Assembly: GCA_024684055.1 (NCBI GenBank)
Contig: JAIKXN010000178.1
Span: 8,741-72,740, forward strand
DNA: 64,000 bases
Origin: Lachnospiraceae bacterium
GTDB lineage: Bacteria > Bacillota > Clostridia > Lachnospirales > Lachnospiraceae
Reading direction: 5' to 3'
A program made the translations under genes and the position numbers. Of the stretch, positions 10,284 to 14,843 are shown piece by piece. The number at the start of each line of letters is the position of its first letter. Position 1 is the stretch's first letter. Under the pieces are notes generated by a model. It made no database searches. It had not been told where the DNA came from and saw only the letters and a list, made by a program, of their open reading frames with translations.

Positions 10284-11774
10284 TTACAGGCTGAGAAAAT
10301 CAGCGACTTCTTTTTTCATATCTGCTTTTTCACAAACATTTTTGTGTAAAATTTCAGCGTTTCTGATATCTTTAACGGCTTTGGGTATTTCGATACCCGA
10401 AATCTCATTTAATCTGTCTACAAGAACAAAATCTTCCTCATCGTGTTCTGTTGAATCGATCGCCGAAAGAACGGCTCTTGTAAATTTATAAGGTGAAGCT
10501 GTTGAAACTATAACGGTTTCGTTATCATCATCAACTGTTTTTCTGTATTCTTCGTATACGGCACTTGCAACAGCTGTATGTGTATCGAGAACATATCCTG
10601 TCTTGTCGAATACATTTTTGATCCTGTCACTTACCTGCTTCTCACTTGCAAAACCGCCGATGAAACTTTCGTCGATAAACTGCTTCATTTCTGCAGTAAC
10701 TTCATAACTTCCCTTTTCCTTAAGGTCATTCATAAGTTTCTTGTTTAATTCGCTGTTTCCGCCGCAAGAAAGATATACAAGTCTTTCAAAGTTGGAAGAA
10801 ATAAGAATATCCATCGAAGGAGAAGTTGTAAGTATGAAATCTCTGTTTCTGTCGTAAACCGAAGAATTAAAGAAATCATAAAGAACTTTATTCTCGTTTG
10901 AAGCACATATAAGTTTGTTAACGGGAAGTCCGATGCATTTTGCAAAATAACCTGCAAGGATGTTTCCGAAGTTACCGGTGGGAACAACGAAATTGATAAG
11001 ATCTCCTTCTTCGATCTTGCCGTTCTTTAAAAGGTTCGCATATGCATATACGTAATATACAACCTGAGGAATAAGACGGCCGATATTGATAGAATTGGCA
11101 GAAGAAAATCTGTATCCCGCTTTGTTAATCTTCTCGTTAAATTCTTTGTCTGTAAATATATTCTTTACACCTGTCTGAGCATCATCAAAGTTGCCCTTGA
11201 TACCTACAACCTTAACATTGTCTCCGACCTGTGTTACCATCTGCTTTTCCTGAATCGCGGAAACTCCGCCCTTCGGATAAAATACGATGATCTTAACGCC
11301 TTCAACACCTGCAAATCCGGCCAAAGCCGCTTTACCGGTATCTCCCGATGTAGCAGTAAGAATAACAATATCTTCTTTGATATTGTTTTTCTTTGCCGAT
11401 ACTTTCATAAGATAAGGAAGAATCGAAAGTGCCATATCCTTGAAAGCGATTGTCGATCCGTGGAAAAGTTCAAGATAATATGCTTTGTCCACATAAGACA
11501 TTACAACCGTATCTTCCGTATCAAATTTGGAATCGTATGCATTATCTATACAATACTTTAATTCTTCTTCCGAAAAATCAGAGAAGAATAATTTCATTAC
11601 TTCATAAGCAATTCCCTTGTAATCCATTCCGGATAATTCCTCAAGACTCTTTTCAAGCGAAGGAAACTGTTCAGGTACAAACAAACCTCCGTCATCCGCA
11701 ATACCTTTTGCGATTGCGTAAGACGCGCTTACACGTTTGGAATCATCTCTCGTACTCTTGTATAATATTTCCAT
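10284..11774 (-). CDS. thrC: Threonine synthase
   Basis: LELFHGSTIAFKD (PLP lysine), ATSGDTG, SANSINIGRL, VPTGNFGN. Start moved to ATG 11774, which follows a GGAG RBS. Confidence 0.97.
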   Translation of the reverse strand: MEILYKSTRDDSKRVSASYAIAKGIADDGGLFVPEQFPSLEKSLEELSGMDYKGIAYEVMKLFFSDFSEEELKYCIDNAYDSKFDTEDTVVMSYVDKAYYLELFHGSTIAFKDMALSILPYLMKVSAKKNNIKEDIVILTATSGDTGKAALAGFAGVEGVKIIVFYPKGGVSAIQEKQMVTQVGDNVKVVGIKGNFDDAQTGVKNIFTDKEFNEKINKAGYRFSSANSINIGRLIPQVVYYVYAYANLLKNGKIEEGDLINFVVPTGNFGNILAGYFAKCIGLPVNKLICASNENKVLYDFFNSSVYDRNRDFILTTSPSMDILISSNFERLVYLSCGGNSELNKKLMNDLKEKGSYEVTAEMKQFIDESFIGGFASEKQVSDRIKNVFDKTGYVLDTHTAVASAVYEEYRKTVDDDNETVIVSTASPYKFTRAVLSAIDSTEHDEEDFVLVDRLNEISGIEIPKAVKDIRNAEILHKNVCEKADMKKEVADFLSL

Positions 11775-12044
11775 AGCTGCTCCTAAAACAAAAATATACA
11801 AACCGCTTTTTTAACCGGCTTTATTGATATTGTTATTTTTTTTACAAAGTTGTTATTATTATAACATAATATTTCTTCATGATAAAGATTTAATAAATTA
11901 GTTATAAATGATATTATTTTTGTACGGGAATTACAAGATTAATTTGTAATTTCAATCGATTTTTTCAAATTATACGACGTTTTTTTCAATTTTGCGCTAA
12001 ACAATTTTGTTAACATATAGGATTTTTTCGTCTTTTATAAATTT

Positions 12045-12869
12045 ATGGCAAAAAAATCAAAAATGAACGGATATCGGAATCTGCTTATGAAGTCCAAAGG
12101 TATATTCAAAACATATAAAAAAGACAATACTCCCTACTATCGCGTATTCGTTACCAGAAAAGGAAAACACATTTCTCTTGGTTCTTATGAAAAAGAAAGC
12201 GATGCCTGCGAATGTTATAATGATGCCCTTAATATCCTTGAAGATAAAAATATTTCTTACGATGATTACAGGGACTCATACAAAATCTCATTCGATAAAT
12301 TTATCGTTCTGGTGAATTTCAGGGACAGCGGAATCTATATATCAAATCCGATTTATTTAAGACCGAATTTCTTTTATTATTTTCTGGATAAAGATACGAT
12401 TCTTAAATTCGATAAAGACGATCTTTTTTACTATTCAAAACATAAAATCTGCAAAAGAGGCAATCATCTCTTCTGCTATGAATACGGAAACCAGATAAGC
12501 ATTAATGAAAGATACAATATCGGCTCATATGCCGTTGTCGATAAAGATTACAGATTCATTAACGGCGATAAAACCGATTACAGATATTCAAACATAGAAA
12601 TACTTAATTCTTTTCATGGTGTAAGGAAAATAACCGAAGGCGCCAAGACGTTCTATGAGGCAAAAATTCATGTAAACGGCTATATAAAGATCGGCGAATT
12701 CAACAGTGAGATTGAAGCTGCAATAGCATATAACAAAGCCGTCGATCTTTTAAAGAAAAAATATGATAAAAACTTCGTTCAGAATTTCCCGGATCTTAAC
12801 GCAAAGGAATACGCATCAATCTATTCGGAAACAGAAATATCTCCAAGAATATATGAGATGATAAACTGA
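12045..12869 (+). CDS. AP2-domain DNA-binding protein with a central degenerate HNH-like motif (AP2-HNH*-AP2)
   Basis: Two AP2-like segments (YYRVFVTRKGKHISLGSYEKESDACECYN and FHGV..FYEAKIHVNGYIKIGEFNSEIEAAIAYNKA) flank RFINGDKTDYRYSNI, which resembles DHINGDKLDNRRSNL. Confidence 0.75.
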   Translation: MAKKSKMNGYRNLLMKSKGIFKTYKKDNTPYYRVFVTRKGKHISLGSYEKESDACECYNDALNILEDKNISYDDYRDSYKISFDKFIVLVNFRDSGIYISNPIYLRPNFFYYFLDKDTILKFDKDDLFYYSKHKICKRGNHLFCYEYGNQISINERYNIGSYAVVDKDYRFINGDKTDYRYSNIEILNSFHGVRKITEGAKTFYEAKIHVNGYIKIGEFNSEIEAAIAYNKAVDLLKKKYDKNFVQNFPDLNAKEYASIYSETEISPRIYEMIN

Positions 12870-13050
12870 TAATCCGAAATGATGAAGCAACATCCGAAAT
12901 GATGGAACTAACATCCGGAATGATAAAACAACATCCGAAATGACGAAACAAACATACGAAATGATAAACTGAACATCTGAAACAATAAATAAATATCTGA
13001 AACAATAAATAAATATCTGAAATAATTATATATATCCAAATATAAACAAA
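12848..13050. repeat. Degenerate 19-21 bp tandem array, about 10 units, starting inside the AP2 gene's last codons
   Basis: Unit starts at 12870, 12891, 12912, 12932, 12953 (core CATCCGAAATGA), then 12974, 12994, 13014, 13033 (core TATCTGAAA). 12848-12869 matches 12951-12972 at 19/22. Confidence 0.92.
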
Positions 13051-13053
13051 AAC

Positions 13054-13079
13054 GACGGACCGTCTTTCGACAGCCCGTC
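13054..13079 (-). terminator. Rho-independent terminator of the flotillin gene
   Basis: Minus-strand RNA GACGGGCUGUC-GAAA-GACGGUCCGUC pairs fully using two G-U pairs, followed by a U tract. Confidence 0.85.
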
Positions 13080-13136: not shown

Positions 13137-14627
13137 TTACTCTGTAACTTCCTTGAAATCTTCTTTTACTTCTTCTTTGCCGGTTTCTGCAGCAGATTTT
13201 GCATTATTTTCTGAAGCGTTTCTTGCTGCCGAATAAGCTACACCACCGAGTGCACCGGAAAGTAATGTTTTGATATCGATACCGAGACCCTGTGTAAGTC
13301 CTTCGGAAATCTGAGTGGTTGAATTTACGATATCGGATACCATCTTTGCAGAATTTCCTTCACCGTACATTGTGATCTTATCAACACTCGAAAGAGGTTT
13401 TGCAACATTTTCCGCAATCTGAGGAAGCACTGCGAAATACATTTCCAAAATGGAAGCTTCCTTCATCTTTGCCTGAGCAAGAGCCTTCTTCTCGATACCT
13501 TCTGCTTCAGCGATCGCTTTTGCTCTAATCGCTTCAGCTTCAGCAATACCTTTAACTTTAATTGCTTCAGCTTCCTGCTCTGCAGCATACTTGGCTGCAT
13601 CAGCCTGAGCACGCATCGCTTCTGCTTCCTGTTTCTTACGATAGAGTTCAACGTCAGCCATCTGCTGTGCTTCGTATTTGTCAGCATCAGCTTTCTTTCT
13701 GATTGTAGCAGCAAGTTCCTGTTCCTTAACGGAAGCTTCCTTCTGCTTGAGTTCAATCTCTCTTTCCTGCTTTGCAATATCAGCATTTGCAGAAGCAACT
13801 TCGATCGACTTACGCTGTTCCTCTTCCTGAATACGATAAGCCGCATCAGCTTCAGCCTTCTTGATATCAGCTTCTCTCTTAAGTTCAGCCTGTTTGATTG
13901 CAAGCTGGTTATTTCTTTCGGCAATATCCGTATCAGCAGCAACCTGAGCTTCGTTTGCAAGCTGTTTGGCTTTAGCCTGTTCAATGGCAACGTCTTTTTC
14001 AGCCTGAGCTCTCGCAATGGATGCACTCTTCTGAATCTGTGACATATTGTCCTGACCGAGGGCATTGATGAGGTCGTTCTTATCTTCGATTCTCTGAATG
14101 TTGCATGAAATGATCTCGATACCGAGGTTGTTCATATCACTCTGAGCTTTGGTCTGAACTTCATCACCGAATTTCTTACGATCATTACATAATTCCTTAA
14201 GCGAAACTGTACCAATGATTTCACGCATGTTACCCTGAAGAGAATCTGTAAGGGCTTCTGCGATCTGCTTCTCGTTCATGTTAAGGAAGTTCTTCATCGC
14301 AAGTTTGATTCCCTTTTCATCAGTCATCACACGAACCTTTGCAATCGCGTCGATATCAACACCGATGAAGTCAAGTGTGGGAATGTAACCGTTTGTCTTA
14401 ATATCGATAGACATCTGCTTTACCAAAAGCATATCTTTTCTTTCAAGAAAAGGAAGTTTGATTCCTGCTCTACCGATCAGTACTTTAGGTTCCTTTTTAA
14501 AACCTGAGATGATGTACGCAGTATCGGGTGGAGCTTTAACATAACCTGACGCAATTATTATAATAATAAGTGCAAAAAGAACCAGTGCCGCAACTGCAGC
14601 CGCGCAAATAATTGTTTCAAATGGCAT
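13137..14627 (-). CDS. Flotillin/SPFH-domain membrane protein
   Basis: N-terminal TM, SPFH domain (GRAGIKLPFLE, LQGNMREIIG) and an Ala/Glu/Lys-rich flotillin coiled coil. Confidence 0.93.
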   Translation of the reverse strand: MPFETIICAAAVAALVLFALIIIIIASGYVKAPPDTAYIISGFKKEPKVLIGRAGIKLPFLERKDMLLVKQMSIDIKTNGYIPTLDFIGVDIDAIAKVRVMTDEKGIKLAMKNFLNMNEKQIAEALTDSLQGNMREIIGTVSLKELCNDRKKFGDEVQTKAQSDMNNLGIEIISCNIQRIEDKNDLINALGQDNMSQIQKSASIARAQAEKDVAIEQAKAKQLANEAQVAADTDIAERNNQLAIKQAELKREADIKKAEADAAYRIQEEEQRKSIEVASANADIAKQEREIELKQKEASVKEQELAATIRKKADADKYEAQQMADVELYRKKQEAEAMRAQADAAKYAAEQEAEAIKVKGIAEAEAIRAKAIAEAEGIEKKALAQAKMKEASILEMYFAVLPQIAENVAKPLSSVDKITMYGEGNSAKMVSDIVNSTTQISEGLTQGLGIDIKTLLSGALGGVAYSAARNASENNAKSAAETGKEEVKEDFKEVTE

Positions 14628-14685: not shown

Positions 14686-14771
14686 TATATAAAATAATGA
14701 CAATATACGGTCATATTTCACTTTTACGGAGAAAATAACAGCAATTAATCGCTAAGACATTAAAAAAATAA

Positions 14772-14811
14772 GCACGAATTCGGTCGTAGATTTAAATAAC
14801 CGAATTCGTGC
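14772..14811 (-). terminator. Terminator of the uppS...polC transcript
   Basis: Perfect 13-bp inverted repeat GCACGAATTCGGT/ACCGAATTCGTGC followed by TTATTTTTTT on the minus strand. Confidence 0.8.
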
Positions 14812-14843
14812 ATATATTAATGTTAAATCGATATCTATGTATT

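Follow-up and report, generated by a model that had tools for sequence, protein, structure and literature searches.

We find that a gene in a 64,000-nucleotide stretch of Lachnospiraceae DNA (the window) encodes a protein that is probably domesticated and catalytically dead, descended from an HNH-AP2 homing endonuclease, vertically inherited as a chromosomal gene of the Lachnospiraceae and acting as a DNA-binding regulator or an architectural protein. Its domains follow the order AP2, degenerate HNH_3-type, AP2 (Table 1), a layout that a sequence-only reading of the same DNA had put forward and that is recovered here, at 96.5-97% hhalign probability for the AP2 domains and, for the middle domain, by Foldseek at E 1e-5 with a TM score of about 0.55. 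Sequence comparison and structural models support the descent of the family from an HNH-AP2 homing endonuclease with absence of the catalytic His, and the distribution of the gene supports its being domesticated and not selfish. Judged from its sequence, the protein most likely works as a DNA-binding regulator.

The open reading frame described earlier is present at 12045..12869 (+) and would encode 274 aa; the true start is probably at 12087, giving a protein of 260 aa. Conservation begins at Met15 (12087), from which all homologues align, the first 14 codons of the longer frame are not conserved, and in the database the identical sequence carries a gene call (P0001) of 260 aa as well. Scanning the window protein against Pfam and NCBIfam yielded nothing useful, no functional annotation for family members was found in databases, and literature searches found no description of the family. 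The full-length AF2 model has a pLDDT of 91.8 and a pTM of 0.74. The protein as a whole is basic (pI about 9.1, net charge +7), as is each of its three modules (pI about 9).

Table 1. Features of the AP2-HNH(dead)-AP2 locus in window coordinates; residues are numbered on the 260-aa form.
Feature	Position	Strand	Evidence and remarks
Intergenic region common to the divergent thrC gene	11775..12086	.	presumably holds both promoters
CDS of the AP2-HNH(dead)-AP2 protein	12087..12869	+	260 aa plus stop; ORF list, gene call P0001, homologue alignment from Met15
N-terminal AP2-like domain, aa 4-55	12096..12251	+	three beta-strands then helix; hhalign, WRI1 alignment, AF2, PHROG_99
Linker with conserved helix, aa 56-85 (...SFEKxVxLxNFRDNGIY)	12252..12341	+	AF2 helix 69-81; invariant K71, L75, N77, R79, D80, Y84
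Degenerate HNH_3-type (His-Me finger) domain, aa 86-178	12342..12620	+	Foldseek of lone-domain model, dN/dS, column conservation
HNH core motif remnant, D154-I172 (DYRFINGDKTDYRYSNIEI)	12546..12602	+	hhalign register, sub-threshold HNH_3 matches, residue counts in 145 members
C-terminal AP2, aa 179-225 (HGV...Y.AKIHINGxxxIGxYxxEIEAAIAYNKA)	12621..12761	+	hhalign, PDB profile, Foldseek
C-terminal helical tail, aa 226-260	12762..12866	+	AF2 helices 239-248, 253-259; moderate conservation (N233, Y242, Y246)
Tandem array, about 8 copies of a 20-21-nt unit (consensus about ATGATAAAACAACATCCGAA)	12858..13026	+	TRF, repeat finder
GC-rich hairpin between the convergent AP2 and flotillin genes	13054..13079	.	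terminator scan: 11 pairs, called on - strand

Both flanking domains have the AP2 fold, a three-stranded antiparallel sheet with one helix, which appears twice in the AF2 model as strand-strand-strand-helix at pLDDT >90 (strands 6-10, 16-24 and 27-34 and helix 37-52 in the N-terminal copy). Against genuine HNH_3-AP2 proteins, hhalign gave the N-terminal domain (alignment A1) a probability of 96.5% and E 8.6e-10, and the C-terminal domain 97% and E 8e-11 to 2e-11. The two AP2 domains of plant WRI1 align with this pair, domain 1 with aa 4-55 and domain 2 with the C-terminal AP2 (domain i-E 0.0017); the PDB profile search matched WRI1 at E 3.3e-6, and ERF was also among the PDB matches. The N-terminal domain, an addition to the usual phage layout that had been proposed from the letters of the DNA, also has a PHROG_99 match (aa 24-79 in 274-aa numbering, E 2e-8), and the best Foldseek matches of the full-length model in PDB were the AP2 domain of TEM1 and WRI1. 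The gathering score of Pfam AP2 (PF00847, 33.3 bits) was not reached, the window protein having no match, and among 24 homologues nine match at E<=1, the best at 26.3 bits, below that score. The basic pI of both AP2 domains lends indirect support to a predicted sequence-specific binding of double-stranded DNA.

The middle domain is the best-conserved segment of the protein (22 of 93 columns conserved at >=95%). Because the multi-domain full-length query returned only AP2 domains from PDB, masking the middle, this domain was modelled alone (pLDDT 78.7). Nine BFVD entries then matched in Foldseek at E<=1e-3, and every named one is an HNH or homing endonuclease; the matches to viral HNH/homing endonucleases have E 1e-5 to 1e-3, TMq 0.50-0.57 and rmsd 3.2-4.7 A. 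In sequence comparison, a first hhalign run showed the N-terminal AP2 only, and trimming the alignment exposed the HNH register: the middle domain together with the C-terminal AP2 aligned at E 8e-11, the 19-column HNH core alone at E 0.0075. Since the profile of the domain alone reaches E 0.0075-0.028 in hhalign, the case for sequence homology here depends on a short motif together with the fold match. DYRFINGDxxDFRYSNIEI pairs in this register with QIDHINGNxLDNRxSNLR of genuine HNH_3-AP2 proteins, and, in greedy and global modes, LKFDxDDLFYYSxHKI pairs with alVDDeDyexvsxxkW; these are the two motif resemblances quoted in the sequence-only reading, and the fold comparison that it called for, made here with Foldseek, hhalign and AF2 models, recovered similarity to both the HNH_3 and the AP2 folds. 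Pfam HNH_3 (PF13392, gathering score 24.8 bits) has no match in the window protein; weak matches occur in 11 of 24 homologues (11.4-16.8 bits in those rescanned), always on the HNH core remnant at profile positions 23-41 of 46.

What the domain has kept and what it has lost can be followed residue by residue, with I-HmuI D74, H75, N87 and N96 mapped through alignment A2 and the roles of H75 and the helix Asn in I-HmuI taken from PMC3384342. Of the beta-beta-alpha finger it retains the hairpin (strands 155-157 and 170-172 in the AF2 model), and its beta-rich core is also preserved. The alpha-helix is gone, and with it the metal-binding Asn (I-HmuI N96), through a deletion of 16 residues seen as a gap in hhalign against genuine HNH_3-AP2 proteins; in the model, strand 170-172 runs directly into AP2 strand 179-184. 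Of 145 members, 144 have Phe at the general-base position, which lies at the end of beta-strand 1 (I-HmuI H75), and one has Thr; none has His there. The Asn position of the HNH_3 'DNR' motif (I-HmuI N83) is Tyr in the window and F/Y/L/M/W across the family. Phe171 and Tyr179, named earlier at the catalytic His and Asn positions (F157 and Y165 of the 260-aa form, codons 12555-12557 and 12579-12581), are both upheld, and the replacement of the two residues extends to the whole family, with the nuance that the classical structural Asn, which braces the hairpin (I-HmuI N87), survives as N183, or N169 (12591-12593), in 144 of 145 members. The metal-ligand position equivalent to Asp74 varies among members. 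From the His-to-Phe change, the variable Asp74 position and the deleted metal-Asn helix we infer that the domain is catalytically dead.

The family comprises 4658 clusters at 90% identity and appears to be largely confined to Lachnospiraceae: at least 573 GTDB species genomes carry an intact copy, and the 80 listed are almost all from this lineage. One copy is present per locus examined, and none of the 83 copies checked, from 82 loci and the window, is interrupted. Selection across relatives is strongly purifying, with a dN/dS of about 0.09 overall, 0.045 in the dead nuclease domain (the lowest) and 0.09-0.17 in the AP2 domains, values that are rough because dS is near saturation (about 1.0-1.4). 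We saw no mobility of the homing-endonuclease kind, with no insertion in a host gene, intron or intein, and tblastn against phage genomes found no genuine phage record carrying the gene. Two 'UNVERIFIED Bacteriophage sp.' contigs were considered as phage carriers and set aside, one being a bacterial fragment with citrate synthase and thrC and the other probably likewise; the remaining phage matches are 30-residue AP2 stretches in T4-like HNH genes. No PADLOC defence-protein model matched at E<=1. The patchy, prophage-associated and pseudogenised distribution that would speak for a selfish element was looked for, and what emerged was 83/83 intact copies and linkage to thrC at 71/83 loci. With intact copies in so many species, conserved chromosomal synteny and strong purifying selection, the proposal of domestication stands.

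Inspection of the neighbourhood bore out the housekeeping surroundings, with no phage or IS genes nearby. Upstream and divergent lies thrC in 71 of 83 loci, in 44 of which a SleB/CwlJ-like hydrolase gene (Hydrolase_2) sits between the two and is itself the divergent neighbour. The association of our gene with thrC is mostly one of synteny, and regulatory pairing of the two was dropped as the main reading because the hydrolase gene separates them in most genomes. Citrate synthase, ApbE and Rnf genes make up the wider synteny in relatives, the flotillin/polC neighbourhood is limited to the window and its closest relatives, and no gene consistently co-oriented or co-operonic with ours was found in the relatives' loci. 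K-mer enrichment found no conserved operator upstream of the gene in the window or its relatives, promoter-like sites in the intergenic region shared with thrC are no more frequent than in shuffled sequence, and no Rfam family was found in the intergenic regions. The k-mers enriched upstream in relatives resolve into a ribosome-binding site, an extended -10 and, on the Hydrolase_2 strand, the palindrome-like AAATATTTC. We read AAATATTTC as the -35 of a promoter of sigmaE/K type that serves the divergent Hydrolase_2 gene; the window lacks it. The k-mers enriched downstream probably lie in the 3' coding end of the convergent neighbour gene. The GC-rich hairpin between our gene and the flotillin gene is probably a bidirectional terminator. 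By eye, similar GC-rich inverted repeats occupy the equivalent place in two relatives (L083 and L084). In a Butyrivibrio strain, assembled RNA-seq reads from four libraries span the homologue without a break, weakly suggesting that it is expressed there; the assemblies give neither local depth nor strand, and the contigs may contain DNA.

Several other explanations deserve weighing against domestication as a DNA-binding regulator or architectural protein. That the protein is still an active site-specific endonuclease, homing or nicking, with substitute catalytic residues, would agree with a fold and domain order that match HNH-AP2 homing endonucleases, with the replacement of the His in some His-Me enzymes (Tyr in PacI) and with the invariant D111, D112, H127, D154 and D164 left in the middle domain. 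We regard it as highly improbable, since a Phe fixed in 144/145 members is incapable of the general-base role, the metal-Asn helix is deleted, the Asp74 equivalent is variable, and the gene keeps a single chromosomal position family-wide, outside host genes, introns, inteins and genuine phage genomes. A shade less improbable, and still very unlikely, is the earlier proposal that the protein and the adjacent 20-21-nt array form one system, taken here to mean that the array is a set of iteron-like AP2 binding sites. The array is real and far from random (five matches to the unit in the window, all inside the array, versus 0.05 expected), its period equals about two helical turns, it abuts the gene, and two further loci (L017, L019) have tandem arrays directly after the gene. 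However, the closest syntenic relatives (58-67% identity) have a spacer of only 33-129 nt in its place, which in the two read (L083 and L084, 83 and 129 nt) holds a terminator-like hairpin alone. About 77 of 80 loci are free of a downstream array, and the 2-3 that have one differ from the window in unit and period. The unit is missing elsewhere in the window, and the first copy includes the gene's last codons and stop codon, consistent with slippage duplication; RNA structure in the array is not significant (z -1.0). An independent metagenome contig spans 12798-12990 with zero differences, metagenome contigs being sparse. Being specific to the window's lineage, the array does not belong to a conserved system, and the coupling of protein and array is not supported.

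The two remaining alternatives, both of which we consider unlikely though less so than those above, concern what the protein now does. One holds that it is nucleoid-associated or architectural, binding DNA without strict sequence specificity in chromosome organisation, replication or segregation. Its high pI and positive charge fit such a role, as do its presence as one copy per locus and as a core gene of the whole family, the extended -10 promoters of housekeeping type in relatives, the finding of neither a ligand-sensing domain nor a conserved operator, and the nearby polC in the window and its closest relatives. The polC neighbourhood is lost beyond those relatives, however, characterised AP2 domains and the I-HmuI-type sheet are all sequence-specific, and 260 aa in three structured modules differs from the small, abundant proteins typical of the nucleoid. 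The other holds that the middle domain has been re-purposed for a protein partner, RNA or a small molecule while the AP2 domains merely tether it, or that the whole protein acts on RNA or protein. Constraint is indeed strongest on the dead domain and weaker on the AP2s, many of its invariant residues are aromatic, and inactive His-Me domains that bind substrates other than DNA are known, for example in the Enpp family; against this, all three modules are basic, and no particular partner is indicated, no co-oriented or co-operonic gene recurring across loci.

We return to the domesticated, catalytically dead HNH-AP2 descendant as the preferred explanation. The protein would have lost the ability to cut DNA, and its three basic modules, two AP2 beta-sheets and the dead His-Me beta-sheet, may grip a long composite DNA site, the protein binding as an extended monomer; in I-HmuI, the His-Me beta-sheet reads the major groove. 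The protein could then be a sequence-specific regulator of transcription or a DNA-binding protein with an architectural role, and its gene would be expressed from a promoter of housekeeping type. The downstream array would have arisen when the 3' end of the gene was duplicated locally, and would lie within the 3' UTR of one lineage and be dispensable for the function of the family. Set against this explanation are the position of both AP2 domains and the HNH remnant under Pfam's curated thresholds, the extreme conservation of the dead domain, which could mean a non-DNA role (protein partner, ligand), and the absence of a conserved operator motif near the gene.

Among known systems, the nearest are the HNH_3-AP2 homing endonucleases of phages and giant viruses (His-Me finger group 2, I-HmuI-like; PF13392 plus PF00847), which share the order HNH_3-type then AP2, the colinear register DHINGxxLDNRxSNL against RFINGDxxDFRYSNI, the middle fold (Foldseek E 1e-5) and the AP2 profiles (97%). 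Our family departs from them in the His-to-Phe change, the deleted metal-Asn helix and the extra N-terminal AP2; it is chromosomal, with fixed synteny, vertical inheritance and strong purifying selection, whereas they are mobile. WhiA (DUF199), a transcription factor of Gram-positives that stems from a LAGLIDADG homing endonuclease, offers an analogy: a homing-endonuclease scaffold that lost catalysis, kept its DNA-recognition surface and, with an additional DNA-binding domain, turned into a conserved protein of the host (PMC3384342). The folds are unrelated, WhiA being built on LAGLIDADG and HTH where ours has a His-Me finger and AP2, and WhiA is near-universal in Gram-positives and experimentally characterised, whereas our family appears to be largely of the Lachnospiraceae and is described here from sequence. 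The SMAD MH1 domain, too, is a devolved beta-beta-alpha-Me fold that lost its catalytic residues and kept the hairpin or sheet for major-groove reading; it is eukaryotic, zinc-stabilised and retains the helix, and it has neither AP2 nor detectable sequence relation to our family. CasPR anti-CRISPR repressors of Bacillota phages (CapR plus AP2) use AP2 as a sequence-specific transcriptional silencer (bioRxiv 10.64898/2026.02.23.707548), but they are phage-encoded, act on cas genes and couple AP2 to a zinc module, CapR; no sequence match links the window protein to them, and it lies outside any prophage context and matches no PADLOC defence protein. WhiA and MH1, as devolved nuclease folds with DNA-binding roles, are precedents for the role proposed here, as are the CasPRs for AP2 proteins that repress transcription in Bacillota.

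For the plant AP2/ERF factors, an HNH-AP2 origin was proposed by Magnani et al. 2004, as cited in PMC5714182. Like our family, they carry an AP2 DNA-binding module freed from nuclease activity, and double-AP2 proteins such as WRI1 also have two AP2 domains per polypeptide. In plants the HNH domain is fully lost, whereas here the dead HNH is kept between the AP2s as the most constrained part, and the Lachnospiraceae case is a bacterial event independent of the plant one. The family would supply an evolutionary intermediate missing from the plant AP2 story, in which catalysis is lost while the nuclease scaffold is still carried and depended on, and it would add the HNH-AP2 class to the few homing endonucleases, such as WhiA and SMAD MH1, listed as domesticated. 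Should its binding site prove long and modular, like those of I-HmuI-like monomers, an architecture of three modules could also interest those who engineer DNA-binding proteins.

Lachnospiraceae are among the most abundant gut bacteria and one of several dominant families in mammals, and their regulatory proteins are poorly known. With thousands of clusters under strong constraint and no annotation, this protein is a good target for lineage-wide regulator discovery. Tentatively, and with slightly less than even confidence, we suggest that it may represent the first chromosomal AP2-type regulator family fixed across a major bacterial lineage, a second and independent 'WhiA-like' domestication, this time of the HNH-AP2 class, in which the dead His-Me finger serves as an indispensable third DNA-reading (or partner-binding) module controlling a conserved Lachnospiraceae regulon. 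If true, the family would offer a living counterpart, in bacteria, to the origin proposed for plant AP2/ERF factors.

The gene lying between thrC and the flotillin gene very probably encodes a domesticated, catalytically dead derivative of an HNH-AP2 endonuclease, in which a degenerate HNH_3-type middle domain (HNH*) sits between two AP2 domains. The open reading frame is present exactly as the sequence-only reading reported it; its start is likely at Met15, giving 260 aa, because the identical protein is called at that length in the database and all homologues align from this residue, the first 14 codons showing no conservation in the homologue alignment. Residue numbers here refer to the 260-aa form; those of that reading are 14 higher.

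Coordinates of the AP2-HNH*-AP2 gene and associated features (in the window unless a locus of a relative, L, is named)
Feature	Coordinates	Strand	Remarks
AP2-HNH*-AP2 gene, longest ORF	12045-12869	+	274 aa; likely start 12087
thrC	10284-11774	-	divergent to AP2 gene
Flotillin gene	13137-14627	-	convergent with AP2 gene
Tandem array	12858-13026		~8 copies of a 20-21-nt unit
Probable terminator hairpin	13054-13079		beyond array
Antisense ORF	12796-13005	-	69 aa, TTG start
Putative palindromic hairpin	14755-14824		between flotillin gene and polC
Hydrolase_2 gene	L086:6105-6773		equivalents e.g. in L001, L009, L032
Butyrivibrio 33-43-nt repeats	L017:2668-2840, L017:6856-7073, L007:12615-12722

Direct scans of the window protein against Pfam and NCBIfam gave no matches, and its similarity to PHROG_99 'HNH endonuclease' (E 2e-8) runs through the AP2 part of that family. 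Four lines of evidence from sequence profiles and structural models agree on an HNH_3-type middle domain. With the N-terminal AP2 domain (AP2-N) trimmed off, the hhalign match to A2, an alignment of genuine HNH_3-AP2 proteins seeded with a T4-like phage HNH gene, extends colinearly from the C-terminal AP2 domain (AP2-C) into the middle domain, placing DYRFINGDxxDFRYSNIEI of the family on QIDHINGNxLDNRxSNLR, with a 16-residue gap where genuine enzymes read 'AtxxQNxxNrk...'; the 19-column HNH core alone reaches E 0.0075. An upstream resemblance suggested earlier also held, since greedy and global modes both aligned LKFDxDDLFYYSxHKI with alVDDeDyexvsxxkW in the same register. Pfam HNH_3 matched 11 of 24 homologues below threshold, and in the members rescanned singly the match always covered aa 160-180 and positions 23-41 of the 46-position profile. 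Modelled alone, with no AP2 domain present, the middle domain (pLDDT 78.7) gave nine matches at E<=1e-3 to predicted viral structures (TMq 0.50-0.57, rmsd 3.2-4.7 A, 90-100 columns), of which all the named ones are HNH or homing endonucleases, and viral HNH endonucleases likewise ranked first for the full-length model (E 2e-10). The profile and structure searches uphold the HNH-AP2 layout proposed for the middle and C-terminus.

Since I-HmuI, a homing endonuclease of solved structure (1U3E), is matched by A2 at E 1.5e-9, residue roles can be transferred to the family. The metal ligands of I-HmuI are reportedly D74 and N96, and N87 is said to be a structural Asn. H75 is the general base, and metal is bound by an Asn at the start of a helix (PMC3384342). 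Of 145 full-length members, 144 have Phe and one has Thr at the H75 position, confirming the replacement of the catalytic His by Phe (Phe171 in the 274-aa form), the D74 position varies (R, I, H, L, Y), and the helix bearing N96 is deleted in the hhalign alignment; in the AlphaFold2 model, strand 170-172 leads straight into the AP2 sheet with no intervening helix. The second substitution proposed, Tyr179 (Y165 here), does replace a nuclease Asn, but that of 'DNR' (N83) and not N87, whose position stays Asn in 144 of 145. We infer from these positions that the protein is predicted to be unable to hydrolyse DNA by the standard His-Me mechanism.

The additional AP2-like domain suspected at the N-terminus is real by several measures. 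hhalign against A2 gave probabilities of 96.5% for AP2-N and 97% for AP2-C; the two AP2 domains of Arabidopsis WRI1 find their counterparts at aa 18-60 and 206-234 (274-aa form), a match that rises to E 3.3e-6 with the family profile; and the full-length AlphaFold2 model, built with 24 homologues (pLDDT 91.8, pTM 0.74), contains strand-strand-strand-helix twice, its top PDB matches being the TEM1 AP2 domain and WRI1. Distant relatives of ~350 aa (P0129, P0144, P0146, P0152 and P0164, the last at L089:3536-4588; 33-43% identity) carry an additional AP2 domain, their third, at the C-terminal end, and here too the catalytic His is missing; the one locus inspected lies among housekeeping genes (transketolase), with no thrC linkage. 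The representative search also returned P0252 (882 aa), an eukaryotic-looking, Ala/Gly/Arg-rich protein with at least seven tandem AP2 repeats, and P0190 (401 aa), in which a membrane-transporter-like N-terminal half precedes the C-terminal half of the family, probably a chimeric gene call or frameshift.

Among clusters at 90% identity, 4658 are related to the window protein (E<=1e-3), almost every one 257-280 aa long and named 'hypothetical protein'; at 50% clustering they collapse to ~40 strong representatives (E<=1e-30), so the family is compact. With one genome scanned for each GTDB species, at least 573 relatives were confirmed, the best 80 being almost all Lachnospiraceae (Butyrivibrio, Pseudobutyrivibrio, Acetatifactor, Roseburia, Waltera, Herbinix, Anaerosporobacter). 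That the gene is domesticated rather than selfish is borne out by intact copies in 83 of 83 cases (82 loci and the window), one per locus, by a stable chromosomal position and by the dN/dS comparison that had been called for: over 110 pairs of 70-97% identity it was ~0.09 overall and, region by region, rose from 0.045 for the dead nuclease domain through 0.09 (AP2-C), 0.13 (linker) and 0.15 (tail) to 0.17 (AP2-N), values that are rough because dS is near saturation. Invariant columns are most numerous in the dead domain. The housekeeping setting described earlier also stands, neighbour annotation and PADLOC finding no phage, IS or defence genes near the window's copy; the flotillin gene is followed by polC, ispG, rseP, dxr, cdsA, uppS, frr, pyrH, tsf, rpsB and a flagellar/chemotaxis block. 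Rfam gave weak plant/insect miRNA matches, judged spurious, between the flotillin gene and polC; their shared coordinates on both strands suggest a palindromic hairpin that may be a terminator or a regulatory element. The AP2 gene (12087-12869) has a G+C content of 33%, lower than the 39.9% of the window and the 38-43% of the neighbouring genes, a mild bias that could be a faint foreign trace or just a normal property of this gene.

The family also turns up in two GenBank records titled 'UNVERIFIED: Bacteriophage sp.'. We rejected a phage assignment for MT836856.1 (L082), a bacterial chromosomal fragment carrying citrate synthase, thrC and the AP2 gene in bacterial order; MT837267.1, from its similar tblastn match, is probably another. 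Of 83 loci, 71 have thrC upstream in the opposite orientation. It is the immediate neighbour in only 20 of these 71; in 44 a ~210-aa Hydrolase_2 (SleB/CwlJ-like) cell-wall hydrolase gene intervenes, which the window does not contain and which has been lost from the lineage of the window and from Butyrivibrio. We favour inherited synteny over a regulator-target pair as the explanation of the thrC linkage. Recurrent among the more distant neighbours are citrate synthase, a response-regulator GGDEF protein, GH25 lysozyme, ApbE and the Rnf operon, and flotillin and polC follow only in the closest relatives (58-67% identity); the gene occupies a stable core-genome site, the opposite of homing-endonuclease behaviour. 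Many relatives share an upstream extended -10 (TGnTAnAAT) preceded by a TTG-type -35, which we read as a putative housekeeping promoter. A second conserved element, AAATATT, 14 nt, CATAGAATA, lies on the Hydrolase_2 strand and was rejected as an operator in favour of a putative sigmaE/K-type sporulation promoter for the hydrolase gene. Neither an operator candidate, in the upstream regions of the window and relatives, nor an Rfam family, in the intergenic regions around the gene, was found.

The adjoining array had been proposed to form a system with the gene, and it recurs in an independent metagenome contig. In syntenic relatives, however, the corresponding spacer is only 33-129 nt long (in L083 and L084, the two spacers read, a terminator-like hairpin and nothing else), and tandem repeats directly after the gene occur only in L017, L019 and weakly L053/L061, with unrelated units; this makes the array a 3'-UTR repeat specific to one lineage, and the proposal is not supported. 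Because the first copy of the array holds the gene's last codons and stop codon, slippage duplication of that 3' end is its probable origin. The unit was found nowhere else in the 64-kb window, no significant RNA fold of the array was found, and we consider it very improbable that the repeats are binding sites for the protein. The antisense ORF overlying them we take to be their by-product and not a gene. Several intergenic regions of Butyrivibrio loci hold 33-43-nt tandem repeats with hairpin-like cores (GGGGAAGG...CCTTCCCC), which look like a genus-specific element with no relation to this array.

In I-HmuI-type enzymes a small antiparallel sheet beside the active site reads the major groove, and tethered domains lengthen the site (PMC3384342). 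Each of the three modules here has a pI of ~9, the protein as a whole having a net charge of +7, and by analogy it may bind double-stranded DNA as an extended, I-HmuI-like monomer, the middle-domain sheet being flanked on both sides by AP2 sheets; with cleavage lost, it would serve either as a sequence-specific regulator or as an architectural factor. Precedents exist for each element: WhiA and SMAD MH1 are nuclease folds devolved into DNA binders (PMC3384342), the AP2-containing CasPRs silence transcription in Bacillota (bioRxiv 10.64898/2026.02.23.707548), and an HNH-AP2 origin has been proposed for the plant AP2/ERF regulators (Magnani et al. 2004, as cited in PMC5714182). Domestication combined with DNA-binding regulation is the reading we lean towards, with less assurance than for the dead nuclease itself. 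Homing-endonuclease domestication as a principle and AP2 domains are already known, and no description of this family was found in Pfam, NCBIfam, PHROGs, PADLOC or the searchable literature. What is new is the combination: a dead HNH domain, retained and highly constrained between two AP2 domains and fixed across a bacterial family.
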